A stretch of 32,000 nt of DNA from Candidatus Velamenicoccus archaeovorus (GCF_004102945.1 NZ_CP019384.1:1800001-1832000); one strand, 5' to 3'. Shown: positions 7,714 through 26,402, counted from the first letter of the stretch. Numbers and translations: made by a program. The notes: generated by a model from the sequence alone, not told the origin.

Positions 7714-8361
7714 TCAACTCAAATTTTTCGCTCGTAAACCGTATACCAGATCCGGCCGGGCCTTGACGACAAACTCGACGACGAGCATTGTGATGAACGC
7801 TTCGCCGATGCCGATCAGGGCATGTACGCCGACCATGGCCGCAAACACAGCCCCAAAGCGGGCCGTACCCGATAAGGCCAGCTCAATGGCGCAGGATGCG
7901 GACGCCAAGACAACGGAAAACCAGGCAGCGACGGCAACGGCCGCCGTAAATCCTCTAGAGGAAGGCATCAAGCGAAAGAGGATCCTGAAAAGACCGTATC
8001 CCCCCAATGTCCCCATCACGGCCATGTTAAAAATATTGGCACCGAGGACAAATAGCCCGCCATCCTGAAACACCAAACATTGGATCACCAGAACGCAGGC
8101 CAGGACAAGAGATGCCGCCCATGGACCCAAAAGCACGGCGGCCAGAACCCCTCCCAAAAGATGCCCTGAAGTGCCTCCCATAATGGGAAAATTCAACATC
8201 TGCGCCGCAAAGATGAACGCGCACATGACGCCCATCAGCGGCACCATCTTTTCCTGCAGAAGCTGCCTGGTTTTATGGACGCCCCAGCCTAAAAACGCTG
8301 CTGCAGCCGCCCAGCCGGACCCCCAAACAGGAGGAGACAAAAACCCGTCGGGAATATGCAT
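7714..8361 (-). CDS. cbiM: ECF-type cobalt/nickel transporter substrate-capture subunit CbiM/NikM
   Basis: 215 aa and polytopic. The N-terminus MHIPDGFLS is diagnostic, since the N-terminal Met-His participates in metal binding in this family. GGTSGHLLGG is also conserved. SD GGAGG is at 8366-8370 (complement). Confidence 0.85.
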   Translation of the reverse strand: MHIPDGFLSPPVWGSGWAAAAAFLGWGVHKTRQLLQEKMVPLMGVMCAFIFAAQMLNFPIMGGTSGHLLGGVLAAVLLGPWAASLVLACVLVIQCLVFQDGGLFVLGANIFNMAVMGTLGGYGLFRILFRLMPSSRGFTAAVAVAAWFSVVLASASCAIELALSGTARFGAVFAAMVGVHALIGIGEAFITMLVVEFVVKARPDLVYGLRAKNLS

Positions 8362-11254: not shown

Positions 11255-11986
11255 TCAAAACCCGCGCACCGCCCGAGGACCGTTTTTGGCCGACTGAAAA
11301 AACACCTCCCATTCCGAGCCGCAGAACACATCTTGCGGCCCTCCCGATTTAACAATACGGCCCGCCTCCAGCATAAACACACGGCCGGAAAGTTTCATCA
11401 CTTCAAAAGGGTCGTGGCTGACAAGGATCATGGTGATGCCGGTCTTCTCATAGAGCCTCAACACCTCGTCCTGCAGCCGCCACCGTGTCTGGACATCAAG
11501 CGCCGACAACGGCTCATCAAGCAAAAGGACCTTGGGGTGACGCAAGAGCGCCCGCGCCAGCGCCACCCTTTGTTTCTGGCCGCCGGACAGCTTCGACGGA
11601 TAGCGCCGTTCCAAACCCTTCAATCCCACAAGGCCGAGATATTCTTGGACACGGACGGCCTCCTCGCCGCGGCGCAGGGCAAACTTCAGATTCTCTTCCA
11701 CCGTCATGTTGGGAAACAGGCTGTATTCCTGAAAGACAAAACCAGCCGCTCTTTTTTGCGGCGGCAGATTAATCCCAGCCGAGCTATCAAACCAGACTTC
11801 GCCATCCGCCTTCACGAGGCCTTCCTGCGGCGCCTGGAGCCCGGCGATCATCCTCAAGATCGAGGTCTTGCCGCAACCGGAGCGGCCAAACAAAGAAACA
11901 CACTCCCCATCCCTGACCTCAACGTCGATGCTCAGGTCAAAAGGACCTTCGGGCGCCATCAGCGTTTTTTTGAGGAAGATCTTCAC
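11255..11986 (-). CDS. modC: Molybdate-type ABC transporter ATP-binding protein (short form, no TOBE/Mop domain)
   Basis: Walker A is GRSGCGKTS, the signature is LSGGQKQRVALARAL and Walker B is LLLDEP. The 4-nt overlap with modB indicates coupling. At 243 aa it ends shortly after the NBD. Confidence 0.8.
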   Translation of the reverse strand: MKIFLKKTLMAPEGPFDLSIDVEVRDGECVSLFGRSGCGKTSILRMIAGLQAPQEGLVKADGEVWFDSSAGINLPPQKRAAGFVFQEYSLFPNMTVEENLKFALRRGEEAVRVQEYLGLVGLKGLERRYPSKLSGGQKQRVALARALLRHPKVLLLDEPLSALDVQTRWRLQDEVLRLYEKTGITMILVSHDPFEVMKLSGRVFMLEAGRIVKSGGPQDVFCGSEWEVFFQSAKNGPRAVRGF

Positions 11987-12654
11987 ACAACCTCCCCATG
12001 CCGCCGGTACAGGACATGGAACAACACAAGGGCCGCAAGCGAGAAAACAACCAGGATCACCGAATAAAAATTGGCCGCGCTGTAATTCATGGCCTCCACT
12101 TCATTGTAGATCGCGATGGATGCGACGCGTGTCTGGTGGGGGATGCCGCCGCCGATCATGAGCACAACGCCAAACTCCCCCATCGTATGCGCAAAACTCA
12201 TCACGATCCCCGTCAATAAAGAAGCTTTGGTGTTAGGGATGATGACCGACACAAGCGTCTGACGGCGGGATTTACCGAGTGTATAGGCCGCTTCGATCAA
12301 GGCATGGGGAAAATTCTGGAAACCCGCCTTGACGGGATTAACCATGAAAGGAAGGCTGAAAATCACCGAACCGATCACAAGGCCTGTAAAAGAAAACACA
12401 ACTCTCACATCCAGGACGCGTTCCAAAAATGCACCGAAGGCATGCCCGGGGCTCAACAATACCAGGATATAGAACCCCAATACCGTCGGCGGCAAGACAA
12501 GGGGCATGCTCACAAGGGCTTCCCAGAACGGCTTGGTGCGGCCGCGGCTGAAGGCCAGGCTATAAGCCAAAGGGATGCCGACGAGGATCAACACGATCGT
12601 CGTCACTGTCGCCAGTTTTAAAGAAAGCCAGAGCGGCGTAAGATCGTAGGTCAT
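11983..12654 (-). CDS. modB: Molybdate ABC transporter permease
   Basis: 223 aa. The N-terminus LTPLWLSLKLA and the MPLVLPPTVLGFYLL region are typical of ModB/CysTW-type permeases. Confidence 0.85.
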   Translation of the reverse strand: MTYDLTPLWLSLKLATVTTIVLILVGIPLAYSLAFSRGRTKPFWEALVSMPLVLPPTVLGFYILVLLSPGHAFGAFLERVLDVRVVFSFTGLVIGSVIFSLPFMVNPVKAGFQNFPHALIEAAYTLGKSRRQTLVSVIIPNTKASLLTGIVMSFAHTMGEFGVVLMIGGGIPHQTRVASIAIYNEVEAMNYSAANFYSVILVVFSLAALVLFHVLYRRHGEVV

Positions 12655-12672
12655 TTTCTCTTGTTTTCGCCC

Positions 12673-13431
12673 CTAAGAAGGGAGACGATAGCCGTACTTC
12701 TTGAAAATATCGGCCGCGCTTTCGGAAAAAAGGAAACGATAAAACGCCTCTGCGGCACGAGGGTTGTGTTTGGCGGCATACGCCAGGACCACGGCGCCTT
12801 GGGCGATCGGCTCGTACAAAGACGCGTCGATCTCCACCCAGCGCCCTTTATCTTTGACCGAATCATCCACCACCGAAGATTTCGAGGTAAAACCTCCGTC
12901 TGCAGCCCCCGAGAGGATAAATTGGTTGGCCTGAGAGATATTCTCGGCATAGACCAATTTGGGCCGGGTGCCAAGATACACATTCAGCGCTTTCATGGTG
13001 TTGACGGCTTGCCGGCCGTAAGGCGCTGTTTTGGGATTGGCAAGCGCAATCTTCTTCAACGAAGGATCCTCCAGGACCTCGCCGAGAGGACGAGACAAAT
13101 CCAGGGACTTTGATGTCCAGAATACGAGAAGTCCGTACACATACACCTTCGGTTTCTCCAAAGCCAGGCCTTTTTTAAAAAGGACCTCGGGATATGACAT
13201 GTCCGCCGACATAAAGACATCGAAGGGGGCGCCGTTCTCGATCTGCGCCGTCAGGTTTCCGGAAGACCCGATAACGACATCCACGCTGGAACCGGATTCC
13301 TTTTCAAACGTCGTCACCAGCTCATCCATCAGCACCTGCAGGTTTGCCGCTACGGCGACCGTCAGGTCTTTGGCGAAAACAGAAACAGGAAAAATAAGAA
13401 GCAGAAAAATTGCCGTGATCCACTTTTTCAT
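12673..13431 (-). CDS. modA: Molybdate-binding periplasmic protein
   Basis: 252 aa with a signal peptide. LTVAVAANL...VIGSSGNLTAQIENGAPFDVFMSAD is typical of ModA. I cannot distinguish molybdate from tungstate specificity here. Confidence 0.85.
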   Translation of the reverse strand: MKKWITAIFLLLIFPVSVFAKDLTVAVAANLQVLMDELVTTFEKESGSSVDVVIGSSGNLTAQIENGAPFDVFMSADMSYPEVLFKKGLALEKPKVYVYGLLVFWTSKSLDLSRPLGEVLEDPSLKKIALANPKTAPYGRQAVNTMKALNVYLGTRPKLVYAENISQANQFILSGAADGGFTSKSSVVDDSVKDKGRWVEIDASLYEPIAQGAVVLAYAAKHNPRAAEAFYRFLFSESAADIFKKYGYRLPS

Positions 13432-16080: not shown

Positions 16081-17379
16081 TTATATCTTTAACGTTATCT
16101 GTGAATAAACCCAATCGACATCGTCGTGGGATCCTGTGTCCTTGACATAACCGCCGCAAAAAAAGTGGGCGTAACCACATTCGGCCTTCACGTTCTTGCT
16201 GAAATCGTAAAATACGCGCAAGGAGGCTTCCGTGCCGACATAAGAGCTGCGGTCGCCGCTCGTCTTGGTCCGCACGACCACGCCGCTGGAGTTATACCAG
16301 GAGTCATTGGTGTTCTGAAGCCAAAAAAGATCGACCTGGGGCTTGAGCTTCAACTTGCTCGTCGGAGAAAGCGTCAGGCTAAGCTCGGGATTGCGCACGT
16401 TCTGCCACCGGAAGAAATCCAGAAGACCGTAGGGATCGTGGGTAGACTGGTAAAGAGGATTAAAAGTATTCGTCGTGCCGTCGCCTACTTTTTTGTCGCC
16501 CGAGGCCTCGTCGTAGCTGACAGCCACCTGCGGCTTCCAGGCGATCTCTCCAAAAGTCTTGGAGACATCCAGGTGGAATGCATACGCGCTGATGTCCCGG
16601 TTTTGCGTCCTGCCGAACTGATACGGCGCTTCCATGTCATAATCCAGACCAAGCGCGCGGCCGGTGAGACGAAAGCCTATCGTATAGCGGCGCGTCCTGG
16701 GCGAAGAAGACGTCACATCCTGGGACAAAAAATACCCTTCTGTCGTCACATTCGTCTTTTGCGCCTTATAGCCCCCGTAAACACCGGTCAGAGACTCAAC
16801 ATGGCTTGAGACATTAAGGTTATTATCGTTGTATTTGACATCCTGACCGTAAAGGATGTCGGCATAAAAAGCGTCATTGTGATAACGGATGACGCCGCCG
16901 TCAAAAGACCTGATGCGGTTGGCCCATGTGGGCGCGGCGACCAGGCGGCCCTTGCCGTATTTGAATTCCTGGCGGCCGGCCTTGACATCAACGCCAGAGC
17001 CTCCTATGTCGATAAAATTCACAAAGGCCTGGTGCAGGTCAAAATCATCCACCTGGCCGGAATTCGCCTTGATCTGGTAGGCGCCTGTCTGGGCATCCAG
17101 CATTTCGATATAAATATCCACCTTGGGGTCAAGGTATTCATCCGTCAGCGCCGCATCAAAACCGACGCGCAAACGCTGATAAAACTGGCTGCCCGTATCT
17201 TTTTTGCTTTTGTCGAAATCAAAATCATGCTTGTATTCATAACGGAACCTGTCTTCGGCATTCCAGGCTGTCCGCCACTGCAGAAATTGCCCCGCCGACG
17301 ACGTCTCCTGGGCAAAAGAAGGAGCAATCCCCGCGATGAGCCCGAACAAAACGGCCAACAAAACAAGACCTTTCCTCAT
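16081..17379 (-). CDS. Alginate-export (AlgE-like) family outer-membrane beta-barrel
   Basis: 432 aa with a signal peptide ending in APSFA, cleaved before Q. The family motif is GRQEFKYGKGRLVAAPTWANRIRSFDG. The C-terminus is aromatic-rich (YSQITLKI). Confidence 0.75.
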   Translation of the reverse strand: MRKGLVLLAVLFGLIAGIAPSFAQETSSAGQFLQWRTAWNAEDRFRYEYKHDFDFDKSKKDTGSQFYQRLRVGFDAALTDEYLDPKVDIYIEMLDAQTGAYQIKANSGQVDDFDLHQAFVNFIDIGGSGVDVKAGRQEFKYGKGRLVAAPTWANRIRSFDGGVIRYHNDAFYADILYGQDVKYNDNNLNVSSHVESLTGVYGGYKAQKTNVTTEGYFLSQDVTSSSPRTRRYTIGFRLTGRALGLDYDMEAPYQFGRTQNRDISAYAFHLDVSKTFGEIAWKPQVAVSYDEASGDKKVGDGTTNTFNPLYQSTHDPYGLLDFFRWQNVRNPELSLTLSPTSKLKLKPQVDLFWLQNTNDSWYNSSGVVVRTKTSGDRSSYVGTEASLRVFYDFSKNVKAECGYAHFFCGGYVKDTGSHDDVDWVYSQITLKI

Positions 17380-17382
17380 GAC

Positions 17383-17961
17383 CTATCTTCCTTTCTTTAA
17401 GATGCCATGCGCCCATATATCCAAAACAGCCTGGAGGGCCTCATCAAAACTCAAGCGCTCCTGTTCCAAAAATCTCGGACTGATGATGGCCTTGACAGAC
17501 CCCAGATACGCCTGGACAGCCACCGAAGCCGGAACTTTACGCAAAACCCCCCTCTTGATCCCTTTTTCCACAAGAGACCGGATTTCCAGGATCTTTTCAT
17601 TCCTGTAACGCAGGAACTCTTTCCATAGATCGGGGAGCTCGAGCGCGATCTCCTTGAAAAAATGTTCGAACCAGGGCCCGAGGGTCCTGCGCAAAAGCAG
17701 GATGCTGCCGGAGAATACCCTCAAGGGATCTTTCTCCCGCCGCTCCAGATCATCGAGGCCCCTGTTGATGTCTTCCTGCAGACGCTTGACCAGCCCCTTG
17801 GCGATCTCTTCCTTGCCGACAAATATCTTGTAGATCGTGTTTTTGCTCGCCCGCAGATCCTGGGCGATCTCGTCCATCGTCACCTTGCGGTAACCAAACC
17901 GGATCATGCGCGCCTGCGCCGCGTCTAAAATTTTTTCCTTTAATGAGGATGCGTGGATCAT
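17383..17961 (-). CDS. TetR/AcrR family transcriptional regulator
   Basis: The N-terminal HTH is ILDAAQARMIRFGYRKVTMDEIAQDLRASKNTIYKIF. Its stop lies 4 nt before the start of the outer-membrane barrel gene. Confidence 0.9.
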   Translation of the reverse strand: MIHASSLKEKILDAAQARMIRFGYRKVTMDEIAQDLRASKNTIYKIFVGKEEIAKGLVKRLQEDINRGLDDLERREKDPLRVFSGSILLLRRTLGPWFEHFFKEIALELPDLWKEFLRYRNEKILEIRSLVEKGIKRGVLRKVPASVAVQAYLGSVKAIISPRFLEQERLSFDEALQAVLDIWAHGILKKGR

Positions 17962-18159: not shown

Positions 18160-18687
18160 CTAAGCTTTCTTAAGGAAGGCCAGGATGGCGGAAAGGATCT
18201 GTGCGGGAGATGGCGGACAGCCGGGGATATGCAGGACGACGGCGCCGATGAGGCCCCGGATGCCCTCAGGATGCCGGTAATAGGAGGCGCCGAACCCCCC
18301 TCCGTCCAAAGCGCAGTCTCCAACGGTAATCACGAATTTCGGGCCGGGCATTGCCTCATAGGTTCTTTTGAGGGCCAGCGCCATGTTACGCGAGAGCGCG
18401 CCTGTCACCACAAGGGCGTCGGCGTGGCGCGGAGAGGCGACAAAATCAATCCCGAAACGCTGGATATCATAGACAGGATTACTCAATGCCGTCATCTCTG
18501 ACTCGCAGGCCCCGCAAGAGCCTGTGTCCACCTCGCGCAGATGCAGAGAGCGGCCGTAGAGGGAAAGGATGGTTTTCTTAAGCTCTTGGCCGATATCCTC
18601 AACCTCGGAACAGGAAGGAATGTCCGGCAAGGTCTTTCTTTCGGTCAAAAGGCCTTTCAAAATACTGTTTTTTATTATCGTCCACAT
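18160..18687 (-). CDS. NuoB/HycG-like small subunit of a group-4-hydrogenase-related complex
   Basis: 175 aa. The Fe-S ligand motifs GSCGACE, GDCALDGG and PGCPP are retained. Confidence 0.85.
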   Translation of the reverse strand: MWTIIKNSILKGLLTERKTLPDIPSCSEVEDIGQELKKTILSLYGRSLHLREVDTGSCGACESEMTALSNPVYDIQRFGIDFVASPRHADALVVTGALSRNMALALKRTYEAMPGPKFVITVGDCALDGGGFGASYYRHPEGIRGLIGAVVLHIPGCPPSPAQILSAILAFLKKA

Positions 18688-19030
18688 TTCTTATTTACCT
18701 CATTGCCTGCCGGTGAGACGGCACAGGACCAACTATGTCTCTGGGTAACGGTCATAAGGCCCGTTTAAAGTATATATAATGACGAATTCCTAAATCCAAA
18801 TGCCTAATAAATGCCGAATTCTCAAAACCGAAACCTTTCCGTATTTTTGTCCCTAGGAATTTGGATTTTATTTGTCATTGGAACTTAGAAATTCGAAACT
18901 GTCTTGAGGCGTAGTGTTAACATCGTGCCCCTGGGTCATCACCGTAGCCGTTACCAAATCCAAAAAACGACATGGCCGACAAAAAAATCTTATTGAATCA
19001 AAAGGTTCATTGTTGATGAAAGATGTCCTA

Positions 19031-20611
19031 TTAAAGATCGTTACCTGCATAAGACAAATCGAAACTTTTGTTGCAGACGGGAAAATCAGGGATGATATTC
19101 CCCAGGACGGCAAACGACAAACCGGGCCAATTATGGAATGAGGGGTCGACAATCTTGCAGCGATCAATCTGTCCGTCGGCCACCTTGACCCAATAAAGAA
19201 CAGGCCCTCTCCATGCCTCCACGGCGCCGAGGGCGCATGCCGGCGCGGCAAGAGAAAAATTCGCGGCCAAGGCCCCCTCTATGTCCGCCAGCCTGTCGGC
19301 AAAATAGATGATCAGGCGCGCCGACTCATCAACCTCCTCCATCCTGACTCGGAGACGAGAAAGAACATCTCCTCTTTCCTGCGTGATCATGCGGAAATCG
19401 GACCCCGCATAGACATCCGGAAAGGTCTTGCGCAGGTCGACGGCGATCCCGGAGGCGCGGGCCGCCAGGCCCACAATCCCTAAGTCCCGTGCCGTCTTTT
19501 GACGCAGAACGCCGGTATCGTCAACGCGATCCATGAACGAGACGCTTGCCAACAGCATCTGCTTAAGTTCCCCATGATCGTCGCAAACAGACAAAATCTC
19601 GCACAACAGCGCCTGGATATCCTGGCGCGAAAACGCGCGGCGAACCCCTCCGATGCGGTTGACACCTTTAAGATAGCGGCTGCCGGTTAAACGTTGGTTC
19701 AACCGCAGGATCTTCTCCTTGAGAACAGAGGCGAATTGCGCCGCAAAGCTGAATCCCACATCCACGGCGATACCGCCGATATCGGCGAAATGATTATAAA
19801 GTCTCTCCAGCTCAAGGCAGATCGCCCGTTCGTACAGCGCCCGGGCAGGAACTTTCAGGGCCGATGCTTTTTCGACAGCCTGACAAAACGCCCAGCTATG
19901 GCCGAAAGCGGTGTCGCCGGCCACGCACTCGGCCAGCCCGACCGCATCGTCAAACGTCTTATGCTCAAAAACTTTTTCGACACCGCGATGCGTAAAACCC
20001 AGGCGGATCTCCAGATTGACGATCGGCTCGCCGGCGGCGCTGAAACGGAAGTGGCCCGGACCGATGATGCCGGCGTGGACCGGACCGACAGGCACCTCAA
20101 AAATCCCTTCGCCGGCGACGCGATTGAAGCCGTAGACACCATCCGGCGCGACATGCGCCGGAAGAACAAAATCTTTTCTCAGGGGGAACAACCCCTTCGG
20201 CCAGACCTCGTCATGCAGATGCAGGCGTCTCTTATCAGGATGCCCCTGCGGCTCCAGACCGAACATCTCCTGGATCTCGCGCTCAAAAAAACTCGCCGAG
20301 TGAATATCCCGTGCCAGGGATGGGAACAACGGCCTGTCCTGCGGGATATCGGCGGTAAAGATACACCATTTCTGGAAGTCGCGGGCCAGAAAAACGCAAT
20401 AAATCTCGAACGCATTCTTGGCAACTCTTTCGTCGGCCGCAAACATGGCCATGACCGCCGATGAAAACGTCTTGTGCGCAAAAAGGCAGGCGCGATGAAA
20501 ATCCTCAAGCTTGAGACGGATAACAACCTCATCGGGATGAAGCTCGAAGGTCTCAACGATCATGACGCCCTGTGCCCTTAATTCCTCTATCACGCCCATG
20601 AATGTCTTCAT
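19031..20611 (-). CDS. Fused NuoC+NuoD / HycE-like large subunit lacking all four Ni-Fe cysteine ligands
   Basis: 526 aa. The NuoC-like N-terminus contains FFEREIQEMFGLEPQGHPD. The HycE-like core contains GPVHAGIIGPGHFRF and RLGFTHRGVEK. AECVAGDTAFGH (19898-19933) sits where RxCGxCxxxH is expected. The C-terminus FDLSYAGNDL (19034-19063) sits where DPCxxCxxR/H is expected. Confidence 0.85.
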   Translation of the reverse strand: MKTFMGVIEELRAQGVMIVETFELHPDEVVIRLKLEDFHRACLFAHKTFSSAVMAMFAADERVAKNAFEIYCVFLARDFQKWCIFTADIPQDRPLFPSLARDIHSASFFEREIQEMFGLEPQGHPDKRRLHLHDEVWPKGLFPLRKDFVLPAHVAPDGVYGFNRVAGEGIFEVPVGPVHAGIIGPGHFRFSAAGEPIVNLEIRLGFTHRGVEKVFEHKTFDDAVGLAECVAGDTAFGHSWAFCQAVEKASALKVPARALYERAICLELERLYNHFADIGGIAVDVGFSFAAQFASVLKEKILRLNQRLTGSRYLKGVNRIGGVRRAFSRQDIQALLCEILSVCDDHGELKQMLLASVSFMDRVDDTGVLRQKTARDLGIVGLAARASGIAVDLRKTFPDVYAGSDFRMITQERGDVLSRLRVRMEEVDESARLIIYFADRLADIEGALAANFSLAAPACALGAVEAWRGPVLYWVKVADGQIDRCKIVDPSFHNWPGLSFAVLGNIIPDFPVCNKSFDLSYAGNDL

Positions 20612-22071
20612 AGCCCCCCTCCCGTGACAAGGCGGGATGCAGCAACAAGCAATGCCTGCAACGGTGTCGGCATCATGACGCCCAAAAGAACCAGAAGAAG
20701 CGCCAAGGACACAAAGACCAGTTTCATGCTTAGGGCCTCACCGCCGGACTCTATCCCTTTGGGCTTATGTCCGAATATCGATGCGCTCAAATGGAACATC
20801 AGGGCGCCGAAAACAACCGCCAGAAAAAGCAAAAGCAGGACCGCCGGGCCGTAGAGCCCCTTCTGGAAGCAGGCCGAGAGGATCATGAGCTTGCTCATAA
20901 AAATCCCAAATGGCGGCATCCCAACGAGGCTGAGGAGCCCGACAAGGGCCGCCGCCGCCGTAAAGGGAAGCGTCTGGACCAGACCGTGGATCATGTGAAG
21001 ATGATGCGTCTTGTATTTCTTGACGGCGTTGCCTGCCGCAAAGAAAACCAGCGATTTGGTCACCGCATGGTTCAAGGCATGGAACATGGAGCCGAAAACT
21101 GCCAAGGGCGTCCCCACGCCCAGGGCGAAAACGATGATGCCGACATGCTCGATACTGCTGTACGCCAAAAGGCGCTTGAAGTCCTTTTGGGCCAGCAAGA
21201 AAATTCCGGCGACAGCGACCGAGAAGAGCCCGAAGAAAATGAAAAGACGCGACGTAAATTCCGGCCCCATCGCCTTGTTGGTGATCATGGCGAACCGGAT
21301 GATCGCATAGAGAGAGGTCTTCAGAAGCACGCCCGAAAGCAAGGCGCTGACCGGGGTCAAGGCCTGGCTGTGGGCGTCAGGCAGCCAGGTGTGCATCGGC
21401 GCCAGGCCCGCTTTTGTGCCATATCCGACCAAGATGAACAAAAAGGCCACGCTCATAATCCGGGGATTAAGGCCTGCTGCGCGGCCCATGATGACGGACC
21501 AGTCGAGGGTCTTTGTGCCCGCCTGGGCGGCCACGGCATAATAGACCAGGACCGTCCCCAGGAGAGCGAGCGTGATCCCTACCGAACAGATGATGACATA
21601 TTTCCATGCGGCTTCAACGGATGCCTTCGTATTGTAAAACCCGACGAGGAATGCCGATGCCAGTGTTGTCAGCTCCACGGCCACCCACATATGTCCCAGA
21701 TTGTCCAAAAGGGGCACCAAAAGCATGGTGGCGGCAAAGACATTGAAAAGAATATCGTAGCCGCGGGCCTGCCTGACGGACAGGGCGCCTCCATCGATGT
21801 CTTCCTGCAGATAAGGCCGGGAATACACAAGGGCCGCCAAGTTGATCAAACTGATCAGGAGAATGAAAAAAGCGCTCAAGGCATCGGCCCGCAGGACGCC
21901 GCCGAAAGCAACAATGCCGCTTCCCGGGGAGATGCGATAAGCCAATATACCTGCCAAGGCGAGGAGGACGCCATGCGCCGCAAGATTGGCCATACCGCGC
22001 AGACGCGCAGGCAAAAGGGCCGAGAGAACAGCGGCCAGCACCGGAATAATGACGATCGAAAAAAGCAACAT
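20608..22071 (-). CDS. NuoM/NuoN/HyfF-like antiporter-type membrane subunit
   Basis: 487 aa and polytopic. WVAVELTTLASAFLVGF and the LAPMHTWLPDAH motif are typical of Mrp/NuoMN-type subunits. It has a 4-nt overlap with the large-subunit gene. Confidence 0.85.
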   Translation of the reverse strand: MLLFSIVIIPVLAAVLSALLPARLRGMANLAAHGVLLALAGILAYRISPGSGIVAFGGVLRADALSAFFILLISLINLAALVYSRPYLQEDIDGGALSVRQARGYDILFNVFAATMLLVPLLDNLGHMWVAVELTTLASAFLVGFYNTKASVEAAWKYVIICSVGITLALLGTVLVYYAVAAQAGTKTLDWSVIMGRAAGLNPRIMSVAFLFILVGYGTKAGLAPMHTWLPDAHSQALTPVSALLSGVLLKTSLYAIIRFAMITNKAMGPEFTSRLFIFFGLFSVAVAGIFLLAQKDFKRLLAYSSIEHVGIIVFALGVGTPLAVFGSMFHALNHAVTKSLVFFAAGNAVKKYKTHHLHMIHGLVQTLPFTAAAALVGLLSLVGMPPFGIFMSKLMILSACFQKGLYGPAVLLLLFLAVVFGALMFHLSASIFGHKPKGIESGGEALSMKLVFVSLALLLVLLGVMMPTPLQALLVAASRLVTGGGL

Positions 22072-22077
22072 CGGCCC

Positions 22078-22713
22078 CTATCCCTTTAAATCCGTTAAAC
22101 GGTGGACCTCTATGTGCGTAAAAACCTTGTTGATGCGGTACATAAAAATCCCCGTGATGATCGCGCAGACAAAAACGTCAAAGGCGATGACGATCTCGAC
22201 GAAAAACGGCATCCCGCCGGCGATGGAGCTCGCCAAAAGGAATATACCGTTCTCCATCACCAGAAGCCCGACAATCTGTGTGAGGGCCTTCATCCGGAAG
22301 ACCATGATGAAAAACCCGACCAAAACGACCGTGATGGAAACGACAAAGGCCGCAAAGACGACGGCCGGACTGTCGCTCACCAACCATGCGCAAAAAACCG
22401 CAGCCCCCCACGTCAAGAACAAGGCGGCGATCAACGACAAAAGAGGATTCAGGAACAACCCCAAGCGTTCATCCACCCTGATCTTTTTGACAAGATGATT
22501 CAAAAATGACGGAATCAGGATCACCTTCACCAGAAGCAAGAGCCCGGCGACGACGAAGACGCCTGCTTCCTTTTGCCGCACGGCAAAATCAAGCGTGACC
22601 AGGAAAAGAAATAAGGATTGCAGGCGGAAATTCTGGATCAACGCCGGGATCCTGTGACAGACAAGCATCGCGTACGTCAAGATCATGATTCCCGTTAGCA
22701 AAAAAAGCGTCAT
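22078..22713 (-). CDS. HyfE-like membrane subunit (NuoK-related)
   Basis: 211 aa and hydrophobic. GLLVMENGIFLLA is typical of the hydrogenase-4 component E family. Confidence 0.7.
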   Translation of the reverse strand: MTLFLLTGIMILTYAMLVCHRIPALIQNFRLQSLFLFLVTLDFAVRQKEAGVFVVAGLLLLVKVILIPSFLNHLVKKIRVDERLGLFLNPLLSLIAALFLTWGAAVFCAWLVSDSPAVVFAAFVVSITVVLVGFFIMVFRMKALTQIVGLLVMENGIFLLASSIAGGMPFFVEIVIAFDVFVCAIITGIFMYRINKVFTHIEVHRLTDLKG

Positions 22714-22728
22714 TGTGTCATACCTCTG

Positions 22729-23646
22729 TTAATATCCCAGGCCTGAGACCACCAAGGCCAGGACGGAAAACAGGAAAGCAAGCCCCAAAAAATCAGTAAC
22801 CCTGAACAGCCTCATCTTTGCGAGGCCGATCTCCGTCAAACCCACGACGATGGCGCAAAGGATTATCTTTAAAACAAAAAATGCCGCACAGGCGACAGCA
22901 GACAACCCCGAAGAACTCCCTATCGGCCACGGCCAGAGGATGGCCCCCAGGAGCGAAAACCAGATCAACTGTTTGGCGTGCGCGGCCGTCTCCAGCATGG
23001 CCAGCGACGGTCCTGAATATTCCAGGAGCATCGCTTCGTGGATCATCGTCAATTCCAGATGCGTCTCCTGGTTGTCGACGGGAATCCGCGATGTTTCCGC
23101 AAGCACGACCATGAAAAGCGAGGCGGCTGCGATCATGCCGGAAAAAGACATGCCCATGGAACGCACCAACGGCTCGGCGGCGGAAGAAGAGCTGTGCGCG
23201 GCGACAACGGCGACGGCCAGAACAGCCGCAGGTTCCACAAAGCTGGCGATAAACATCTCGCGCGAAGACCCCATCCCCCCGAAGGCGCTGCCCGCATCCA
23301 GGCCAGCCAACGCCAGAAAAAAACGCCCCAGAGAAAAAAGGAAAAAGAGCGACAAGACATCGCCCATACCCGCCGCAGACAGGGAAAACGAGAAAACAGG
23401 AACAAACATGAGCGCGGCCAGCGTCGAACCCAGGACCACGGAAGGTGTCCAGCGAAAAATCCACGATGCCGTTTCGGAAACGACCTCCTCTTTTCTCATG
23501 TATTTGGCGATGTTGCGGTAGGGCTGCACGAGCGCAGCCCCCTGGCGCATCCGCAGGGCATTCTTCACCCGGCGGACGAAACCGCTGACCAACGGCGCAG
23601 CGAGAACCGCGATGCCTGCCTGCAATAAAAGCAAGGGTATCTTCAT
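22729..23646 (-). CDS. NuoH/HycD/HyfC-like membrane subunit
   Basis: The ORF extends to 23715. I prefer the ATG at 23646 (MKIPLLLLQ), 5 nt after the upstream stop. RMRQGAALVQPYRNI and MLLEYSG are typical of HycD/NuoH. Confidence 0.8.
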   Translation of the reverse strand: MKIPLLLLQAGIAVLAAPLVSGFVRRVKNALRMRQGAALVQPYRNIAKYMRKEEVVSETASWIFRWTPSVVLGSTLAALMFVPVFSFSLSAAGMGDVLSLFFLFSLGRFFLALAGLDAGSAFGGMGSSREMFIASFVEPAAVLAVAVVAAHSSSSAAEPLVRSMGMSFSGMIAAASLFMVVLAETSRIPVDNQETHLELTMIHEAMLLEYSGPSLAMLETAAHAKQLIWFSLLGAILWPWPIGSSSGLSAVACAAFFVLKIILCAIVVGLTEIGLAKMRLFRVTDFLGLAFLFSVLALVVSGLGY

Positions 23647-23651
23647 TACTG

Positions 23652-25493
23652 TCAGGGCCTCCCGAAAATAACGACCAGCACCAGGATCGTCACGAAAACA
23701 TAAGCCAGGTACCAATGGATACTGCCCATCTGAAATCCGCGGACGTACTGCGCCAGCCTGAAGAGACCGCCAACCACGGGATCATATAGATATCTCTTAA
23801 AAACTGGCGTTGTGGACGTCTCGTAGCTGAATTCCTTGACGTGATAAAAAGAATCCCGTATCTTCTCGGTCTTGCGGTAGGGCAGAAGGAAAAAGCCGAA
23901 GGCGATCCGAAACGGCTTTGAAAATGCCGTGGCCGTGTATTCCGTGCGGTGATCCAGGCGGTAATAACCGCAGCCCCACGTCCTGCCGACCGTGACGGAA
24001 TGTTTACGCGAGACCAGACGGACGAACGCATAAACCGCAGCTATGCCTGCACTCAACGCCAGCATAATCATGGGCGTACGCAGACAGGCATCCGTGCCCG
24101 GGAACCGGATCAGCCCCCAGGAACCGGACAAAAGCCCGTCCCAGACGGCCGGCGGCGGTTTTAAAAAACTCGCCGCCACGGCACAGAGCATTTTCCAGAC
24201 GAGGCCGGCGCCTATCCCTAGGGCGACGGTCAACGCCGCCAAAAAAATCATGGCACTCCTCATGCTCAAGGAAACTTCCCCGGCCTCTGCGGCGGCGCGG
24301 CTCCTGGGCATGGCCAAAAACGCCACGCCGAAGGCCTTGACAAAACAGGCGGCGGCCAGGGCGCTTGTCAACGCCAGACACGCCATCATGCCGGCAAAAA
24401 ACAGCTTTCCGCCCGAGGCCGCATCGCGCAACCCGGCAAAAAAGACCTGGAAGATCAACCACTCGCTGACAAAACCGCTCAAAGGGGGGAGCGCCGAGAT
24501 GGCCATGGCTCCGACGAGAAACGACGCGGCCGTCTGCGGCATGCGCTTGATCAATCCACCCAGCTTCTCGATATCTTTGGTGCCTGTTGCCACATGGATG
24601 CTTCCGGAACACAAAAACAAGAGCCCTTTGAAAACCGCGTGGTTGACCGTATGGTAGAGGCCTGCGGCAAAGGCCGCACATGCCAAAACCCACCAGCCCC
24701 AATGCCAAAAGATCATGCCGGCGCCAATGCCCAAAAGGATGATACCGATATTCTCGACGCTATGATACGCCAGAAGCTTTTTGATGTCGTGTTCCATCAA
24801 GGCATAGATGACGCCCACGAGACACGAGATGCCTGCCGCCACAAGGATCGCACTGCCCCACCACACCGGCGGCACGCCCAGCATCCCGGCGATAAAACGC
24901 AGGATGCCGTAGACGGCCACCTTGATCATGGCGCCGGACATGATGCTCGAGACCGATGCCGGGGCCTGTGGATGGGCATACGGCAGCCAGATATGCAGAG
25001 GAACGATGCCGGCCTTCATGCCGAAGCCGGCAAGAAAAAGACCGAAAAGAATATTCTTTAAACCAACCGGGAATGCGGGGGCTGCGGTACGGATCCCCTC
25101 GAAATCCCACGTCCCGGCCTGGGCGTGCATCAGAAGAAAGGCCGCCAAAAGAAACGCGGTGCCGACATGGGTCATGACCAGATAGATTGTGCCCGCCTTG
25201 ACGGACGCCTCATGCTCATGTTCGAAGACGACGAGGAAATACGACACGAGCGACATGAATTCCCAAGCGAACAGGAAAAGGATAAGATTGGCGCTGGCGA
25301 CGACCGCCGCCATGGAAATGACAAAAAGGGCCGTCAGGCCTGTGGCAAGCGCAGTCCGACGCCTGGAAAATTGCCTGCGCAGATATCCTGCCGAGAAGAG
25401 AAGAGACGGGAGGCTGACCACGACGATGACGCCGAGAAAAAACAAGGCCAGCGGGTCAAAACACCATCGGCTATTTTGACTCAAGAAAAACAT
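23652..25493 (-). CDS. NuoL/HyfB-like antiporter-type membrane subunit
   Basis: The ORF track starts at TTG 25508. The ATG at 25493 follows AGGA. FAWEFMSLVSYFLVVF and LHIWLPYAHPQAP are typical of NuoL/HyfB/MrpA. Confidence 0.85.
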   Translation of the reverse strand: MFFLSQNSRWCFDPLALFFLGVIVVVSLPSLLFSAGYLRRQFSRRRTALATGLTALFVISMAAVVASANLILFLFAWEFMSLVSYFLVVFEHEHEASVKAGTIYLVMTHVGTAFLLAAFLLMHAQAGTWDFEGIRTAAPAFPVGLKNILFGLFLAGFGMKAGIVPLHIWLPYAHPQAPASVSSIMSGAMIKVAVYGILRFIAGMLGVPPVWWGSAILVAAGISCLVGVIYALMEHDIKKLLAYHSVENIGIILLGIGAGMIFWHWGWWVLACAAFAAGLYHTVNHAVFKGLLFLCSGSIHVATGTKDIEKLGGLIKRMPQTAASFLVGAMAISALPPLSGFVSEWLIFQVFFAGLRDAASGGKLFFAGMMACLALTSALAAACFVKAFGVAFLAMPRSRAAAEAGEVSLSMRSAMIFLAALTVALGIGAGLVWKMLCAVAASFLKPPPAVWDGLLSGSWGLIRFPGTDACLRTPMIMLALSAGIAAVYAFVRLVSRKHSVTVGRTWGCGYYRLDHRTEYTATAFSKPFRIAFGFFLLPYRKTEKIRDSFYHVKEFSYETSTTPVFKRYLYDPVVGGLFRLAQYVRGFQMGSIHWYLAYVFVTILVLVVIFGRP

Positions 25494-25706
25494 GCATGTT
25501 CCTGACAAGACAGGGGGTCTTTTTGAAAACGCGGCAGGGAAAAATACGAGGCCGGTGCCTATGGTCCCAATCTATACGATAAACGGCTTAACAACTTACC
25601 TGTACGTCGCACTCCGTCCGGCTTGGATTCCTGTCCACGGGCCGTCTCCATCCCGCCCCATCTGTCATGCAGGGGATGCGCGGCCGCAGGGAAAACAAAC
25701 ATGAAT

Positions 25707-25734
25707 ATTTTAGTCGCCGCGACTTTTTTGTCAA
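25707..25734 (-). promoter_or_regulatory. Candidate sigma70 promoter for the hydrogenase-like operon
   Basis: On the minus strand: TTGACA (25729-25734), 16-nt spacer, TAAAAT (25707-25712). The -35 box overlaps the archaemetzincin stop codon. The implied leader is ~200 nt. Confidence 0.5.
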
Positions 25735-26321
25735 TAGAATTTACGGCGCGTCTTGGCGGGGGCTTCAAAGATGGGGAGTTTTCGGGCGGATATTTTCTGC
25801 GGGATCTTCTGTTGGCAGGCGGGACAGAATTTTAAATCCTTTCTGTCGGTATCTGCGATGGTTTTAGAAAAATGCATGATGCAGGACGCCTGCGGGCAAT
25901 GCGCAAGTCCGAAACTATGCCCGACTTCATGCACGGCCTCCTTGACGCCCCTCTCGCAAAACAAAGCGTTATTCCCGGCTGCGCTGTAAAATTCCGGCCT
26001 CAGGCGCGTCAAGGCGATCAGCGCGTAACCGGTGCGGGGATCTGTCAGGCCGAAAACAAAATCAAGGCCTTGCGCATAAACGTCGGCGTCGATGATCCCC
26101 AAGACCCTCTGTTCCTTTTTACAAATAGGGGCGCACGCCGCAAGCCCGCGAAAAACCGCCGCGGCGTCATACTGCCCCCTGTCTTCGTCAAAGCCTCCTT
26201 GCGGCAAAGGACAGCTTTGCGTCACCGCAACGTCCGCCGAAAACAAGCGGGACAAAACCTCTGCCAGATAATCCAGGCATTGCCCGTGAACCGAACCTAT
26301 GGGCACAAGATATATCTTCAT
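25731..26321 (-). CDS. amzA: Archaemetzincin-family zinc metalloprotease
   Basis: The ORF extends to 26390. I prefer the ATG at 26321 (MKIYLVPIG). The motif HEVGHSFGLAHCPQASCIMHF...FCPAC matches the archaemetzincin signature HExxHxxGxxxCxxxxCxM...CxxC. I count 16 residues in the last spacer, whereas I remember 17 for the family. Confidence 0.85.
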   Translation of the reverse strand: MKIYLVPIGSVHGQCLDYLAEVLSRLFSADVAVTQSCPLPQGGFDEDRGQYDAAAVFRGLAACAPICKKEQRVLGIIDADVYAQGLDFVFGLTDPRTGYALIALTRLRPEFYSAAGNNALFCERGVKEAVHEVGHSFGLAHCPQASCIMHFSKTIADTDRKDLKFCPACQQKIPQKISARKLPIFEAPAKTRRKFY

Positions 26322-26402
26322 GTCAGACGCCTTGAGCCGCGGGCGGCGGCCGCTTTCAAAACGCAGCCCCGCCGTTCCCGGAAAGGACAAAATACAAAAA
26401 TT

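Follow-up and report, generated by a model that had tools for sequence, protein, structure and literature searches.

Anatomy and possible functions of a cysteine-less Ehr-type operon in Candidatus Velamenicoccus archaeovorus

Complexes of the Ehr type are described in the literature as the products of operons that combine NuoB/C/D/H genes with HyfB/E/F-like genes, and their large subunit is close to group 4f but lacks both CxxC motifs. They have been reported in Sulfobacillus, Nitrospira, ammonia-oxidising archaea, CPR, Margulisbacteria and Saganbacteria. A further described system is Hyq (hyqRBCEFGI), an 'endo-hydrogenase' found in diazotrophic alphaproteobacteria, among them Azorhizobium caulinodans (PMC3357923). 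HyqG is a fused NuoC::D protein without both CxxC motifs, HyqI has four cysteines and one N2-type cluster, and HyfH is absent (PMC3357923). Deletion of hyq in A. caulinodans reduces diazotrophic growth and H2 production, and the authors regard a Ni-Fe centre as 'uncertain, if not unlikely' (PMC3357923). The first-pass annotation of the locus discussed here held that no physiological role had been shown for cysteine-less complexes; because of the genetic literature on Hyq, this statement is too strong.

The window, i.e., the whole stretch of 32,000 nucleotides that was analysed, belongs to Candidatus Velamenicoccus archaeovorus, a member of the phylum Omnitrophota. On its minus strand (18160-25493) lie six same-direction genes in the order HyfB, HyfC-NuoH, HyfE, HyfF, fused NuoC+NuoD-HyfG and NuoB-HyfI-like. 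The Pfam and NCBIfam calls (Proton_antipo_M/HyfB, NADHdh/NuoH, HyfE, Proton_antipo_M/HyfF, Complex1_30kDa+Complex1_49kDa and Oxidored_q6) bear out the gene set, strand and order proposed in the first-pass annotation. It is near certain that the locus encodes an Ehr-type complex of six subunits whose ancestor was a group-4f-like membrane [NiFe] hydrogenase. Indeed, NuoB/C/D/H and antiporter-like genes share one operon, both CxxC motifs are absent and the affiliation is group-4f-like, all of which agrees with the Ehr assignment made earlier. A search with the window's protein family also recovered loci from the same groups in which Ehr had been reported. The Ehr family is already named and widespread, and the window locus is one more member, with no essential difference from those described; the traits of its clade are Gly184 in place of a loop Glu of the large subunit, a replacement specific to the Omnitrophota clade, and a HyfB-like subunit without two N-terminal helices. 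The features of the locus are as follows.

25707-25734, minus strand: sigma-70-type operon promoter, TTGACA-16-TAAAAT, 11/12 matches (promoter scan)
25494-25706, minus strand: untranslated leader of ~210 nt from promoter to first gene (stops in all three frames)
23652-25493, minus strand: HyfB/NuoL-like antiporter-like subunit, 613 aa from ATG (Pfam Proton_antipo_M, 1e-56)
22729-23646, minus strand: HyfC/HycD/NuoH-like subunit, 305 aa from MKIPLL (Pfam NADHdh, 7e-32)
22078-22713, minus strand: HyfE-like small membrane subunit, 211 aa, with a NuoK-like C-terminal half (NCBIfam hydrogenase 4 membrane subunit, 4.7e-19)
20608-22071, minus strand: HyfF/NuoN-M-like antiporter-like subunit, 487 aa (NCBIfam HyfF, 7.5e-141)
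19031-20611, minus strand: large subunit of 526 aa, a NuoC and NuoD/HyfG-like fusion devoid of Ni-Fe ligands (Pfam, NCBIfam, HMMER)
19898-19933, minus strand: remodelled L1 site AECVAGDTAFGH, with Ala231 and Thr234 in place of the two Cys (HMMER alignment to HycE)
19034-19063, minus strand: remodelled L2 site and C-terminus FDLSYAGNDL, with Ser520 and Gly523 in place of the two Cys (HMMER alignment to HycE)
18688-19030, minus strand: AT-rich inserted spacer of 343 nt, separating the small subunit gene from the large one (sequence comparison of loci)
18160-18687, minus strand: NuoB/HyfI-like small subunit, 175 aa (Pfam Oxidored_q6, 5e-27)
17383-17961, minus strand: TetR-family regulator gene directly downstream of the operon (Pfam TetR_N)

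The genes had been described as separated by 5-15 nt, apart from one ATGA overlap. Gaps of 5, 15 and 6 nt and the overlap at 20608-20611 are indeed present, but the large and small subunit genes are 343 nt apart. This spacer shows 89% identity to that of loci L003 and L004 and is missing in L001, L005, L007 and L009. The first gene had been thought to reach 25734; its reading frame stays open only to a TTG at 25508, and since stops occur in all three frames upstream of that position and orthologues are 610-613 aa long, its start is the ATG at 25493. L001, L003 and L004 have both promoter hexamers unchanged in their orthologous leaders. The leaders of L001 and L003 are also long, with patchy conservation, and the leader in the window has no match in Rfam. 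The downstream TetR gene has a promoter of its own (18072-18044, promoter scan) and is syntenic in L001-L003; its product is a possible local regulator of the operon. In two Firmicutes loci (L047 and L056), TetR genes unrelated to that of the window lie upstream of the operon. Among the window ORFs scanned, and in the precomputed Pfam annotation of the syntenic locus, there are no HycF/NuoI-type, HycB or FdhF genes and no NuoEFG, hyp or HycI-type endopeptidase genes, as the first-pass annotation had noted for all but HycB.

The large subunit aligns best with HycE of E. coli formate hydrogenlyase (7z0s_E, E 2.9e-67, HMMER), far better than with Nqo4 (1.5e-34), so that scores and motifs place it on the group 4 side and not with complex-I NuoD. 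Its AlphaFold2 model (pLDDT 95) likewise has HycE as the best Foldseek match (7z0s_E, TM 0.94). In the HMMER alignment, RVCGICGFAHS of HycE pairs with ECVAGDTAFGHS at L1, and DPCYSCT pairs with DLSYAGN at L2; the four Ni-Fe cysteine positions are therefore occupied by Ala231, Thr234, Ser520 and Gly523. The replacements claimed earlier, Ala/Thr at L1 and Ser/Gly at L2, were recovered at exactly the coordinates given for them, and the MbhL alignment also puts Ala231 and Thr234 at both L1 positions. The loss of all four ligands extends to 120 close homologues and to 90 representatives of the family, and because of this loss the protein is not a canonical [NiFe] hydrogenase, as had been proposed. 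The site that remains is conserved: the family motif at L1 is E[C/R]V[S/A]GD[S/T], with Asp233 near-invariant across the family, and the tail CNKSFDLSY[S/A]GNDL is nearly unchanged in the 120 homologues and between phyla. The protein ends at the mature hydrogenase end point, with no C-terminal maturation extension. Nor is this a complex I: the quinone ligands (His38/Tyr87 of T. thermophilus Nqo4) correspond to Ile183/Gly232 in a gapless alignment to 2fug_4, and His179 and His187 of the beta1-beta2 loop are invariant.

In light of the Hyq literature, it might be asked whether some non-canonical site of the complex serves H2 turnover, as might be the case in Azorhizobium HyqBCEFGI. By published description, the likeness is close (six genes in the order B-C-E-F-G-I, a Cys-less NuoC::D protein and a four-Cys NuoB-like subunit), and the impaired diazotrophy and H2 production of the hyq deletion strain speak for such an activity. 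However, the evidence for Hyq is genetic, not enzymatic, and its authors themselves doubt the Ni-Fe centre (PMC3357923). No metal ligands are left in the window protein, in which even the loop Glu is Gly184, and the window ORFs scanned include no hyp gene, no nif gene and no HyqR-type activator gene. Moreover, Hyq is NifA-dependent, with HyqR as activator and H2-related mutant phenotypes, whereas the window locus is preceded by a sigma-70-type promoter and lies next to a TetR gene. Of the conserved cysteine pair that Hyq has near the C-terminus, only half is matched in the window (Cys513), and a search seeded with a proteobacterial family member recovered relatives from Thiobacillus and Hydrogenophilales only. 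A cryptic H2 enzyme is therefore a very unlikely interpretation of the locus.

The small subunit aligns with HycG (2.2e-26), cluster ligands included, and retains the four proximal [4Fe-4S] ligands Cys58, Cys61, Cys125 and Cys157 (alignment to HycG, MbhJ and NuoB), which upholds the single cluster predicted in the first-pass annotation. Its residues 1 to ~20 are a vestigial HycF/HyfH N-terminus, a point missing from the first-pass annotation, from which the ferredoxin core (2x[4Fe-4S]) has been deleted, as seen in alignment with fused and separate versions of HyfH; we take this leader to resemble the N-terminus of E. coli HycF. A HycF leader joined to a NuoB core is common to the Omnitrophota clade, Nitrospirota and Saganbacteria, and with one [4Fe-4S] cluster and such a leader the window locus represents the commonest form of the family. 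The four cysteines are present in all Omnitrophota, Saganbacteria and Nitrospirota relatives examined, which, together with a small-subunit dN/dS of 0.11-0.15, indicates that the cluster matters.

Cluster ligands kept under purifying selection would suit a ferredoxin-driven pump. Reduced ferredoxin, produced by pyruvate:ferredoxin oxidoreductase (PFOR), might dock on the small subunit where HycF loss has exposed it, and electrons might pass through the cluster into the remodelled cavity and there reach an acceptor, either soluble or in the membrane, which would drive H+/Na+ export in the manner of MBH, MBS and Ech. PFOR is indeed encoded in Velamenicoccia, the NuoH/NuoD/NuoB coupling interface is invariant together with His179 and His187, other family members carry one or two extra clusters, and a redox-coupled charge translocator is the default view of Ehr in the literature. 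Nonetheless, with neither Ni-Fe nor quinone ligands, no acceptor site can be named; relay clusters are lacking, and relatives without any cluster ligands have the same 'active-site' motifs. Rnf already serves ferredoxin-linked ion pumping in this organism, and the abundance of the protein is very low. This pump, the main rival of the ion translocator favoured below, is a possible but rather doubtful explanation.

Comparison across the family bears on this point. The family occurs in at least 594 species of bacteria and archaea, and its carriers include aerobes, anaerobes, CPR bacteria and archaea. When the neighbourhoods of 87 loci from a wide range of phyla are compared, conservation is confined to the six gene families, with no conserved redox partner; an ArsR-like regulator (10 loci) and TetR regulators come next in frequency. 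The six-gene order is retained in at least 60 loci. Among Cys-less loci, the ferredoxin domain is absent from 25 (+3), has one cluster in 13 and two clusters in 5, and is replaced by a separate HyfH gene in 3. By contrast, the domain is found in all seven four-Cys relatives whose NuoB site is intact (Fisher p = 0.01, phylogeny ignored). The NuoB ligands themselves have gone in five loci (CPR Daviesbacteria, Saccharibacteria, Thermoleophilia, Bdellovibrionales and one other), and in the four named lineages the consensus large-subunit motifs are retained; the 'SGD…LSYSGNDL' site is kept throughout the family, cluster-less lineages included. At the other extreme, Firmicutes members have a complete three-cluster wire leading up to the Cys-less site, which suggests that electrons do have a destination, at least among some members.

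The charged residues of the membrane arm are intact in both antiporter-like subunits. The HyfB-like subunit matches HycC (7z0s, 6.8e-70) and retains the TM5 and TM12 Glu and the TM7, TM8 and TM11 Lys. Its match to the NCBIfam HyfB profile begins at position 77/669, i.e., it lacks the first two TM helices seen in other lineages, and these N-terminal 65-70 residues are absent in the Omnitrophota clade only. The HyfF-like subunit (MbsH, 4e-42; MbhH, 8e-40) retains the TM5 Glu and the TM7, TM8, TM11 and TM12 Lys. The HyfC-like subunit matches HycD (7z0s, 1.4e-33); its reading frame is open to 23715, and orthologues are 303-306 aa long. The HyfE-like subunit, which gives a weak Pfam Oxidored_q2 match, is present in 65 of the 87 loci. 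The ion-translocating module proposed earlier is consistent with the charged TM residues retained in both antiporter-like subunits.

The complex has thus lost the Ni-Fe site, the large-subunit maturation extension and two HycF-type clusters and, in this clade, also the loop Glu and two HyfB helices, and it has retained one small-subunit [4Fe-4S] cluster and an intact chain of charged residues in both antiporter-like subunits. Such anatomy leads us to favour, at somewhat less than even probability, an ion translocator whose core activity is independent of electron throughput and whose cap serves as a plug or redox gate. The membrane arm would move H+ in an Mrp-like manner, and probably Na+ or some other cation as well, with no need for electron throughput. 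The former hydrogenase cap, with its remodelled polar site (Asp233, Ser/Thr234, Ser520, Asn524 and Asp525), would act as a cytoplasmic plug and form the entry of the HyfC channel. The remaining cluster might be structural, or it might sense the ferredoxin pool as a redox gate. The anatomy, residue losses, conservation and expression are matters of observation, and the direction of transport, the identity of the ion and the gating role are what we infer.

Several findings speak for this translocator. With the Ni-Fe cysteines and quinone ligands gone, there is nothing to catalyse; with a HycF leader that lacks its core, there is no wire; and beyond the six genes no partner is conserved. Redox centres decay across the family, in contrast to the four-Cys relatives, the carriers live in all the settings listed above, and a membrane arm with intact Glu/Lys residues is selected and expressed at a low protein level. 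However, the cluster ligands conserved in Omnitrophota, Saganbacteria and Nitrospirota, the full wire of Firmicutes members and the Hyq genetics, which tie a Cys-less relative to H2 turnover, all point the other way, and the cluster-less lineages could represent a separate neofunctionalisation. Mrp antiporters function without any NuoH/NuoD/NuoB module, so antiport alone does not explain the strong selection on that module. In addition, we know of no complex-I-type assembly that works without redox chemistry.

Selection and expression data also bear on whether the operon works at all. The stepwise loss of metal sites, ferredoxin core and two HyfB helices, the 343-nt insertion that splits the operon and the very low protein level might suggest that what remains here is a relic without function, left by a hydrogenase operon in decay. 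Yet all six ORFs are intact and under purifying selection (dN/dS 0.07-0.18; 0.09 for the large subunit), and published enrichment-culture data give transcripts of 11-28 TPM for all six genes, including the small-subunit gene downstream of the insertion. Considered with near-invariant replacement motifs over 120 homologues and several phyla and with the widely retained gene order, this evidence came out against the pseudogene possibility raised in the first-pass annotation, and the relic is effectively refuted. In published proteomes, the large subunit is barely detectable (1-2 ppm riBAQ, with neighbours at 100-1600 ppm), which is unlike a main energy-coupling enzyme.

The conservation of the polar site, cluster-less lineages included, exceeds what a plug needs, both in SGD…LSYSGNDL and in HAGII(E/G)PGHFRF. 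It would fit a membrane arm that runs as a motor on the H+ or Na+ gradient and powers a non-redox reaction or ligand release at this site, on the model of CO2 hydration by NDH-1/Cup or DAB complexes; the oxygen donors (Ser, Thr, Asp and Asn) that replace the ligands would probably suit a hard cation or polar substrate. However, no catalytic accessory gene (e.g., carbonic-anhydrase-like) lies near the operon in any of the loci, no substrate can be proposed from the sequence, and the idea is purely inferential, so that we consider such catalysis unlikely. More broadly, it may be suggested, tentatively and with the doubts already raised, that the Ehr family, the window locus included, is a complex-I-type machine without redox chemistry, whose wire, once the Ni-Fe site had gone, has decayed from three clusters to two, one and none. 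If so, strong selection held the remodelled site and the ion-translocating arm while the clusters vanished, and the polar site would be an ion or ligand site that couples a non-redox event to ion movement, or the reverse. To our knowledge, this mode of coupling would be new to the complex I superfamily.

Among known systems, group 4 [NiFe] hydrogenases have a small subunit with proximal [4Fe-4S] ligands, as here; membership was rejected, both ligand pairs (L1 RxCGxCxxxH and L2 DPCxxCxxH/R) being absent. E. coli FHL (Hyc, PDB 7Z0S) is the best solved-structure match for four subunits (HycE, HycC, HycD and HycG), but it differs in that it has HycF, HycB and FdhF in addition to a Ni-Fe site, its C-terminal extension is cleaved and its maturation involves Hyp/HycI, and its single antiporter-like subunit lacks the TM7 Lys that the window's HyfB keeps. 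Complex I/NDH-1 shares the core folds of NuoB, C, D and H and the K-like and L/M/N-like subunits, although NuoA, J, I, E, F and G genes are absent here and the quinone ligands are replaced. MBS/Mbx has 13 subunits, with an Mrp module and NuoI-like MbsN, and was likewise set aside: the window has six genes and no NuoI-like domain, and MbsL is a weaker match (7.8e-22). The locus does not belong to the Mrp antiporters either, which have seven subunits (MrpA-G) and no peripheral arm: no MrpB/E/F/G equivalents occur here, and the complex has a NuoBCD cap and a NuoH-like subunit in addition. Nonetheless, MbhH, MbsH, MrpA and MrpD are strong matches for the antiporter-like subunits, and Mrp and the Mrp-like modules of MBH/MBS have two such subunits with a full Glu/Lys chain and a NuoK-like subunit, as in the window. 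The four-Cys group 4f-like clusters (Thermincola L033, Ectobacillus funiculus L064 and Selenomonas L070) retain CGxC and LCYxC, both absent from the window locus, and the seven with intact small-subunit ligands always have the one- or two-cluster HyfH domain that the window lacks; they nevertheless have an identical B-C-E-F-G-(H)I order, 39-42% identity to the large subunit and, in common with it, GPxHAGIIEPGHFRF and DFPLINKSF.L.Y…D.

The six genes lie on the minus strand and encode a complex that is a member of the Ehr (energy-converting hydrogenase related) family, i.e., complexes in which the large subunit is without the Ni-Fe cysteines. All six subunit assignments are backed by Pfam and NCBIfam, with NCBIfam scores that all fall below the curated equivalog cut-offs:

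23652-25508, minus strand: HyfB/NuoL-like antiporter-like subunit (open reading frame; the ATG start at 25493 gives 613 aa)
22729-23646, minus strand: HyfC/HycD/NuoH-like subunit (305 aa)
22078-22713, minus strand: HyfE-like subunit
20608-22071, minus strand: HyfF-like antiporter-like subunit
19031-20611, minus strand: fused NuoC+NuoD/HyfG-like protein, the large subunit (526 aa)
18160-18687, minus strand: NuoB/HyfI-like protein, the small subunit (175 aa)

The first-pass annotation had the first gene reaching 25734, but no frame is open beyond 25508 on the upstream side, and the orthologues have 610-613 aa; likewise, the large and small subunit genes, which had been placed 5-15 nt apart, are separated by an AT-rich spacer of 343 nt (18688-19030). 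An apparent second HyfF copy (QAT18072.1, same protein cluster) was rejected: it is the HyfF gene itself with another start codon (99% identity). The nearest relatives of solved structure belong to E. coli formate hydrogenlyase, namely HycE (2.9e-67), HycC (6.8e-70), HycD (1.4e-33), and HycG (2.2e-26).

When the large subunit is aligned to HycE with HMMER, the cysteine columns of the N-terminal ligand motif (L1) are occupied by Ala231 and Thr234 and those of the C-terminal motif (L2) by Ser520 and Gly523, which bears out the ligand loss first noticed in the sequence, with both motifs located exactly. The AlphaFold2 model of this subunit (pLDDT 95) superposes on HycE with a TM of 0.94. Its C-terminus coincides with the end point of mature hydrogenases, and the extension is present in HycE/HyfG-type sequences from the same search. 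Four histidines (His179, His187, His208, and His274) are invariant in the family, and Glu228, Asp233, Cys485, and Cys513 are kept in most members. Judged from these ligand positions, canonical H2 chemistry is excluded for the complex, and so is quinone reduction of the complex I type, because His38 and Tyr87 of Nqo4 align to Ile183 and Gly232. As had been proposed, the ligands of the proximal [4Fe-4S] cluster are all four present in the small subunit (Cys58, Cys61, Cys125, and Cys157). Within the membrane arm, the NuoH-like subunit aligns with HycD end to end, and both antiporter-like subunits retain the TM5 glutamate, the lysines of TM7, TM8, and TM11, and the TM12 glutamate (HyfB) or lysine (HyfF); E. 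coli HycC, in contrast, is without the TM7 lysine. Compared with all other lineages examined, the HyfB-like subunit is missing its first 65-70 residues (two helices).

The source organism, an ultramicrobacterium of the Omnitrophota, lives in a methanogenic enrichment that degrades limonene, where archaea and bacteria are its prey. In that culture, the six genes are each transcribed at 11-28 TPM, similar to their neighbours, and the large subunit protein was found at 1.85 and 1.27 ppm riBAQ, with no detection of the other five subunits in the published metaproteome (PMC12583861, Tables S1/S2). So low a level of the protein speaks against a central role in energy conservation. Decay into a pseudogene, raised in the first-pass annotation as the alternative, can be rejected, since dN/dS is 0.07-0.18 for every gene (Nei-Gojobori, against two relatives) and all six are transcribed. 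The initial observation and its interpretation were essentially right.

The closest 120 homologues of the large subunit (55-87% identity) come nearly all from Omnitrophota MAGs, and the motifs E[C/R]V[S/A/C]GD[S/T]xF[A/G]HS and CNKSFDLSY[S/A]GNDL are almost invariant among them. When 1.84 billion cluster representatives were searched exhaustively, 7,415 matches were obtained, and among the best 150 of these, which were scored, about 90 full-length sequences are without cysteine at the scored ligand columns, a count that is approximate because two of the four columns were offset by one and three residues. Position 233 is Asp in 76/90 of these sequences. Some 20 further sequences fall between them; these have CGxC and LCY[S/A]C in an otherwise identical motif context and are group-4f-like true hydrogenases. 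When GTDB was scanned with one genome for each species, at least 594 genomes proved to have a family member; among the matches listed are Omnitrophota, Saganbacteria, Nitrospirota, Acidobacteriota, Rokubacteria, Chloroflexota, Firmicutes, Actinobacteria, CPR phyla, Verrucomicrobiota, Thaumarchaeota, and Methanomassiliicoccales. This family matches the Ehr of the literature, where it has been described from Sulfobacillus, Nitrospira, ammonia-oxidising archaea, CPR, Elusimicrobia, Margulisbacteria, and Saganbacteria, with its function stated each time to be unknown.

To analyse the neighbourhood, open reading frames were called in 87 loci, and the resulting 1,418 proteins were clustered all-against-all. 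The large subunit was found in 79 loci, antiporter-like subunits in 76, HyfE in 65, the small subunit in 62, and the NuoH-like subunit in 60. No other neighbour is conserved across the 87 loci (the next most frequent family, an ArsR-like regulator, occurs in 10), and redox partners, such as formate dehydrogenase, NuoEF, or CODH, do not recur. The gene order B-C-E-F-G-I (HyfB- to HyfI-like) predominates, with a variant in which the small subunit gene comes first, and two Nitrospirota MAGs (L032 and L079) carry two complete Ehr sets in tandem (B-C-E-F-G-I, then B-C-E…). The operon flanks differ entirely even inside Omnitrophota. An association of Ehr with formate dehydrogenase (PMC6349859) was considered for this locus and rejected, as neither fdhA nor nuoEF lies nearby and V. 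archaeovorus is reported to have no formate dehydrogenase.

The iron-sulfur wire is progressively reduced across the family. In Firmicutes, the small subunit (236-349 aa) carries an N-terminal HycF/HyfH-like domain with two CxxCxxCxxxCP motifs, and in some loci a separate two-cluster ferredoxin gene (108-124 aa) lies between G and I, the position of hyfH. The neighbours of the complete-wire Firmicutes loci are TetR regulators, a transposase, transporters, and chemotaxis proteins. In Acidobacteria and Thaumarchaeota, ligands for just one cluster of the ferredoxin domain remain, and in Omnitrophota, Saganbacteria, and Nitrospirota this domain is gone. The small subunit of V. archaeovorus begins with MWTIIKNSILKGLLTE…, which aligns to the MFxIxKxxxxGxxTxxYP start of fused or free HyfH, and then passes directly to the linker before the NuoB core; thus, it is a fusion of HyfH and HyfI that has had its ferredoxin core deleted. 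In five loci (L041, L049, L058, L067, and L037), even the NuoB ligands are replaced (e.g., GSTNACEQE, GDDA, PGDPP), with three or four of the four cysteines lost. These loci belong to CPR (Daviesbacteria, Saccharibacteria), Thermoleophilia, Bdellovibrionales, and one unclassified MAG, and their six-gene module is intact; in the four named groups, the large subunits carry the family consensus ERISGDSSFSHSL, HAGIIEPGHFRF, and NKSFNLSYSGNDL. The glutamate of HAGIIEPGHFRF is present in 84/90 representatives and is Gly184 in V. archaeovorus and its clade. No mention of the loss of NuoB cluster ligands was found in the Ehr literature examined.

Among the 63 small subunits tallied, 25 combine a cysteine-less large subunit with an intact NuoB site and no ferredoxin domain (plus three with Cys at the first L1 position), and this one-cluster form, to which the V. 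archaeovorus complex belongs, is the commonest. The other cysteine-less loci have a one-cluster domain (13), a two-cluster domain (5), a separate HyfH (3), or a lost NuoB site (5). All seven four-cysteine loci with an intact NuoB site have a ferredoxin domain (Fisher p = 0.01, uncorrected for phylogeny). In a Chloroflexota MAG (L077), a four-cysteine large subunit appears to be paired with a small subunit whose proximal ligands read E, C, E, D and which has an N-terminal ferredoxin domain; either this pairing is an artefact of ORF calling or the hydrogenase is an unusual one.

How the complex works must be reconciled with these variants. It has no relay cluster, acceptor site, or conserved partner, and relatives without any iron-sulfur ligands have the same "active-site" motifs. 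The core conserved activity may be ion translocation via the membrane arm; the HyfC channel would then have the cap as its cytoplasmic end, the remodelled site there being polar or acidic, and the iron-sulfur centres would be a losable accessory with an energising, gating, or structural part. Such a translocator is the simplest reading that covers all variants, and we tentatively regard the V. archaeovorus complex as redox-independent or redox-gated, with somewhat less than even confidence. The main rival, a conventional ferredoxin-driven pump that delivers electrons to some acceptor, is held to be only a little less probable; it is favoured by the strict conservation of the four cluster ligands in the clade of V. 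archaeovorus and by the complete wire of Firmicutes Ehr. Velamenicoccia encode PFOR, but they also have Rnf. If translocation is indeed redox-independent, this would be relevant to the mechanism by which ion pumping in complex I is coupled to an event in the periphery. The decay of the wire, its disappearance from some lineages, and the retention of the former active site provide a concrete, testable hypothesis, for which three-, two-, one-, and zero-cluster forms are available as natural variants.

The operon is preceded by a near-consensus promoter (TTGACA-16-TAAAAT, 25734-25707) that is invariant in three related contigs, followed by a leader of approx. 210 nt (promoter and leader together span 25494-25734); in L001 and L003, which are close relatives, the leader measures 305-373 nt. 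It has a few conserved blocks, e.g., TCACCGGCCT, and no match in an Rfam search; it is possibly regulatory. In L003 and L004, a spacer with 89% identity to the 343-nt one occupies the corresponding position, although the genes on either side are far more diverged at synonymous sites (dS 0.9-1.5). L001, a closer relative, does not have it, nor do L005, L007, and L009, and apart from L003 and L004 no other copy occurs in the 86 loci. The spacer holds a long imperfect hairpin, but its fold as a whole is no better than that of shuffles (z = -0.6). A HyfH remnant or an RNA gene was considered and rejected, since the spacer has no conserved ORF, Rfam match, better-than-shuffled fold, or other copies; it is a later insertion rather than the deleted ferredoxin gene. 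A mobile element or an RNA under constraint are possible identities. Directly upstream of the promoter lies an M54 (archaemetzincin-like) zinc peptidase gene (25731-26390), unrelated to HycI-type hydrogenase endopeptidases and present at that place in L001, L003, and L004, not in L005. A TetR regulator is found downstream of the operon here and upstream in Firmicutes loci. Two genes downstream of the operon, an alginate-export-family outer-membrane protein (16081-17379; QAT17777.1 by gene order) is abundant in the published metaproteome, reaching 1,594 ppm riBAQ against 1-2 ppm for the Ehr large subunit. A CbiM/NikM-type cobalt/nickel uptake component (7714-8361) and a ModA/TupA-type (SBP_bac_11) ABC transporter of the molybdate/tungstate type (11255-13431) lie 5-10 kb downstream; their synteny with the operon is limited to L001 and L003, both close relatives.

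In the public record of V. archaeovorus, a protein with 100% identity to the large subunit, QAT17780.1/WP_128700745.1, is annotated as "formate hydrogenlyase subunit 5". This and other public names of these genes ("formate hydrogenlyase subunit 7", "hydrogenase 4 subunit F", "NADH-quinone oxidoreductase subunit C") denote activities that the sequence cannot support. The published metabolic description credits V. archaeovorus with a group 4g [NiFe] hydrogenase, and the large subunit matches PF00346, a domain used elsewhere for scoring "complex I"; both kinds of call may partly stem from the Ehr locus. The routine labelling of Ehr as "formate hydrogenlyase", "hydrogenase 4", or "complex I" leads to distorted reconstructions of metabolism and warrants caution in annotation. 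The matter concerns hundreds of species, including nitrifiers, soil Acidobacteria and Actinobacteria, Firmicutes, CPR, Thaumarchaeota, and an Omnitrophota predator that kills archaea, and the question of Ehr function dates from 2005-2013.

With respect to known systems, the complex is none of complex I, MBH, and MBS. It is proposed to work like the Mrp antiporter, of which it is not a member, and it has the layout of group-4f-like hydrogenases but not their defining ligands. By its published description, Azorhizobium HyqBCEFGI matches, with a cysteine-less HyqG, a four-cysteine HyqI, and no HyfH (PMC3357923); a search seeded with a proteobacterial member retrieved Beta- and Gammaproteobacteria only and not Hyq itself. 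Deletion and reporter data tie the hyq operon to the recycling of nitrogenase-derived H2 and to microaerobic H2 production, and its authors were themselves doubtful of a Ni-Fe centre (PMC3357923). The V. archaeovorus locus adds a member, in the commonest, one-cluster form, to a known, functionally uncharacterised family; new here are the remnant of HycF, the series of cluster losses across the family while the site is conserved, and the evidence of selection and expression.
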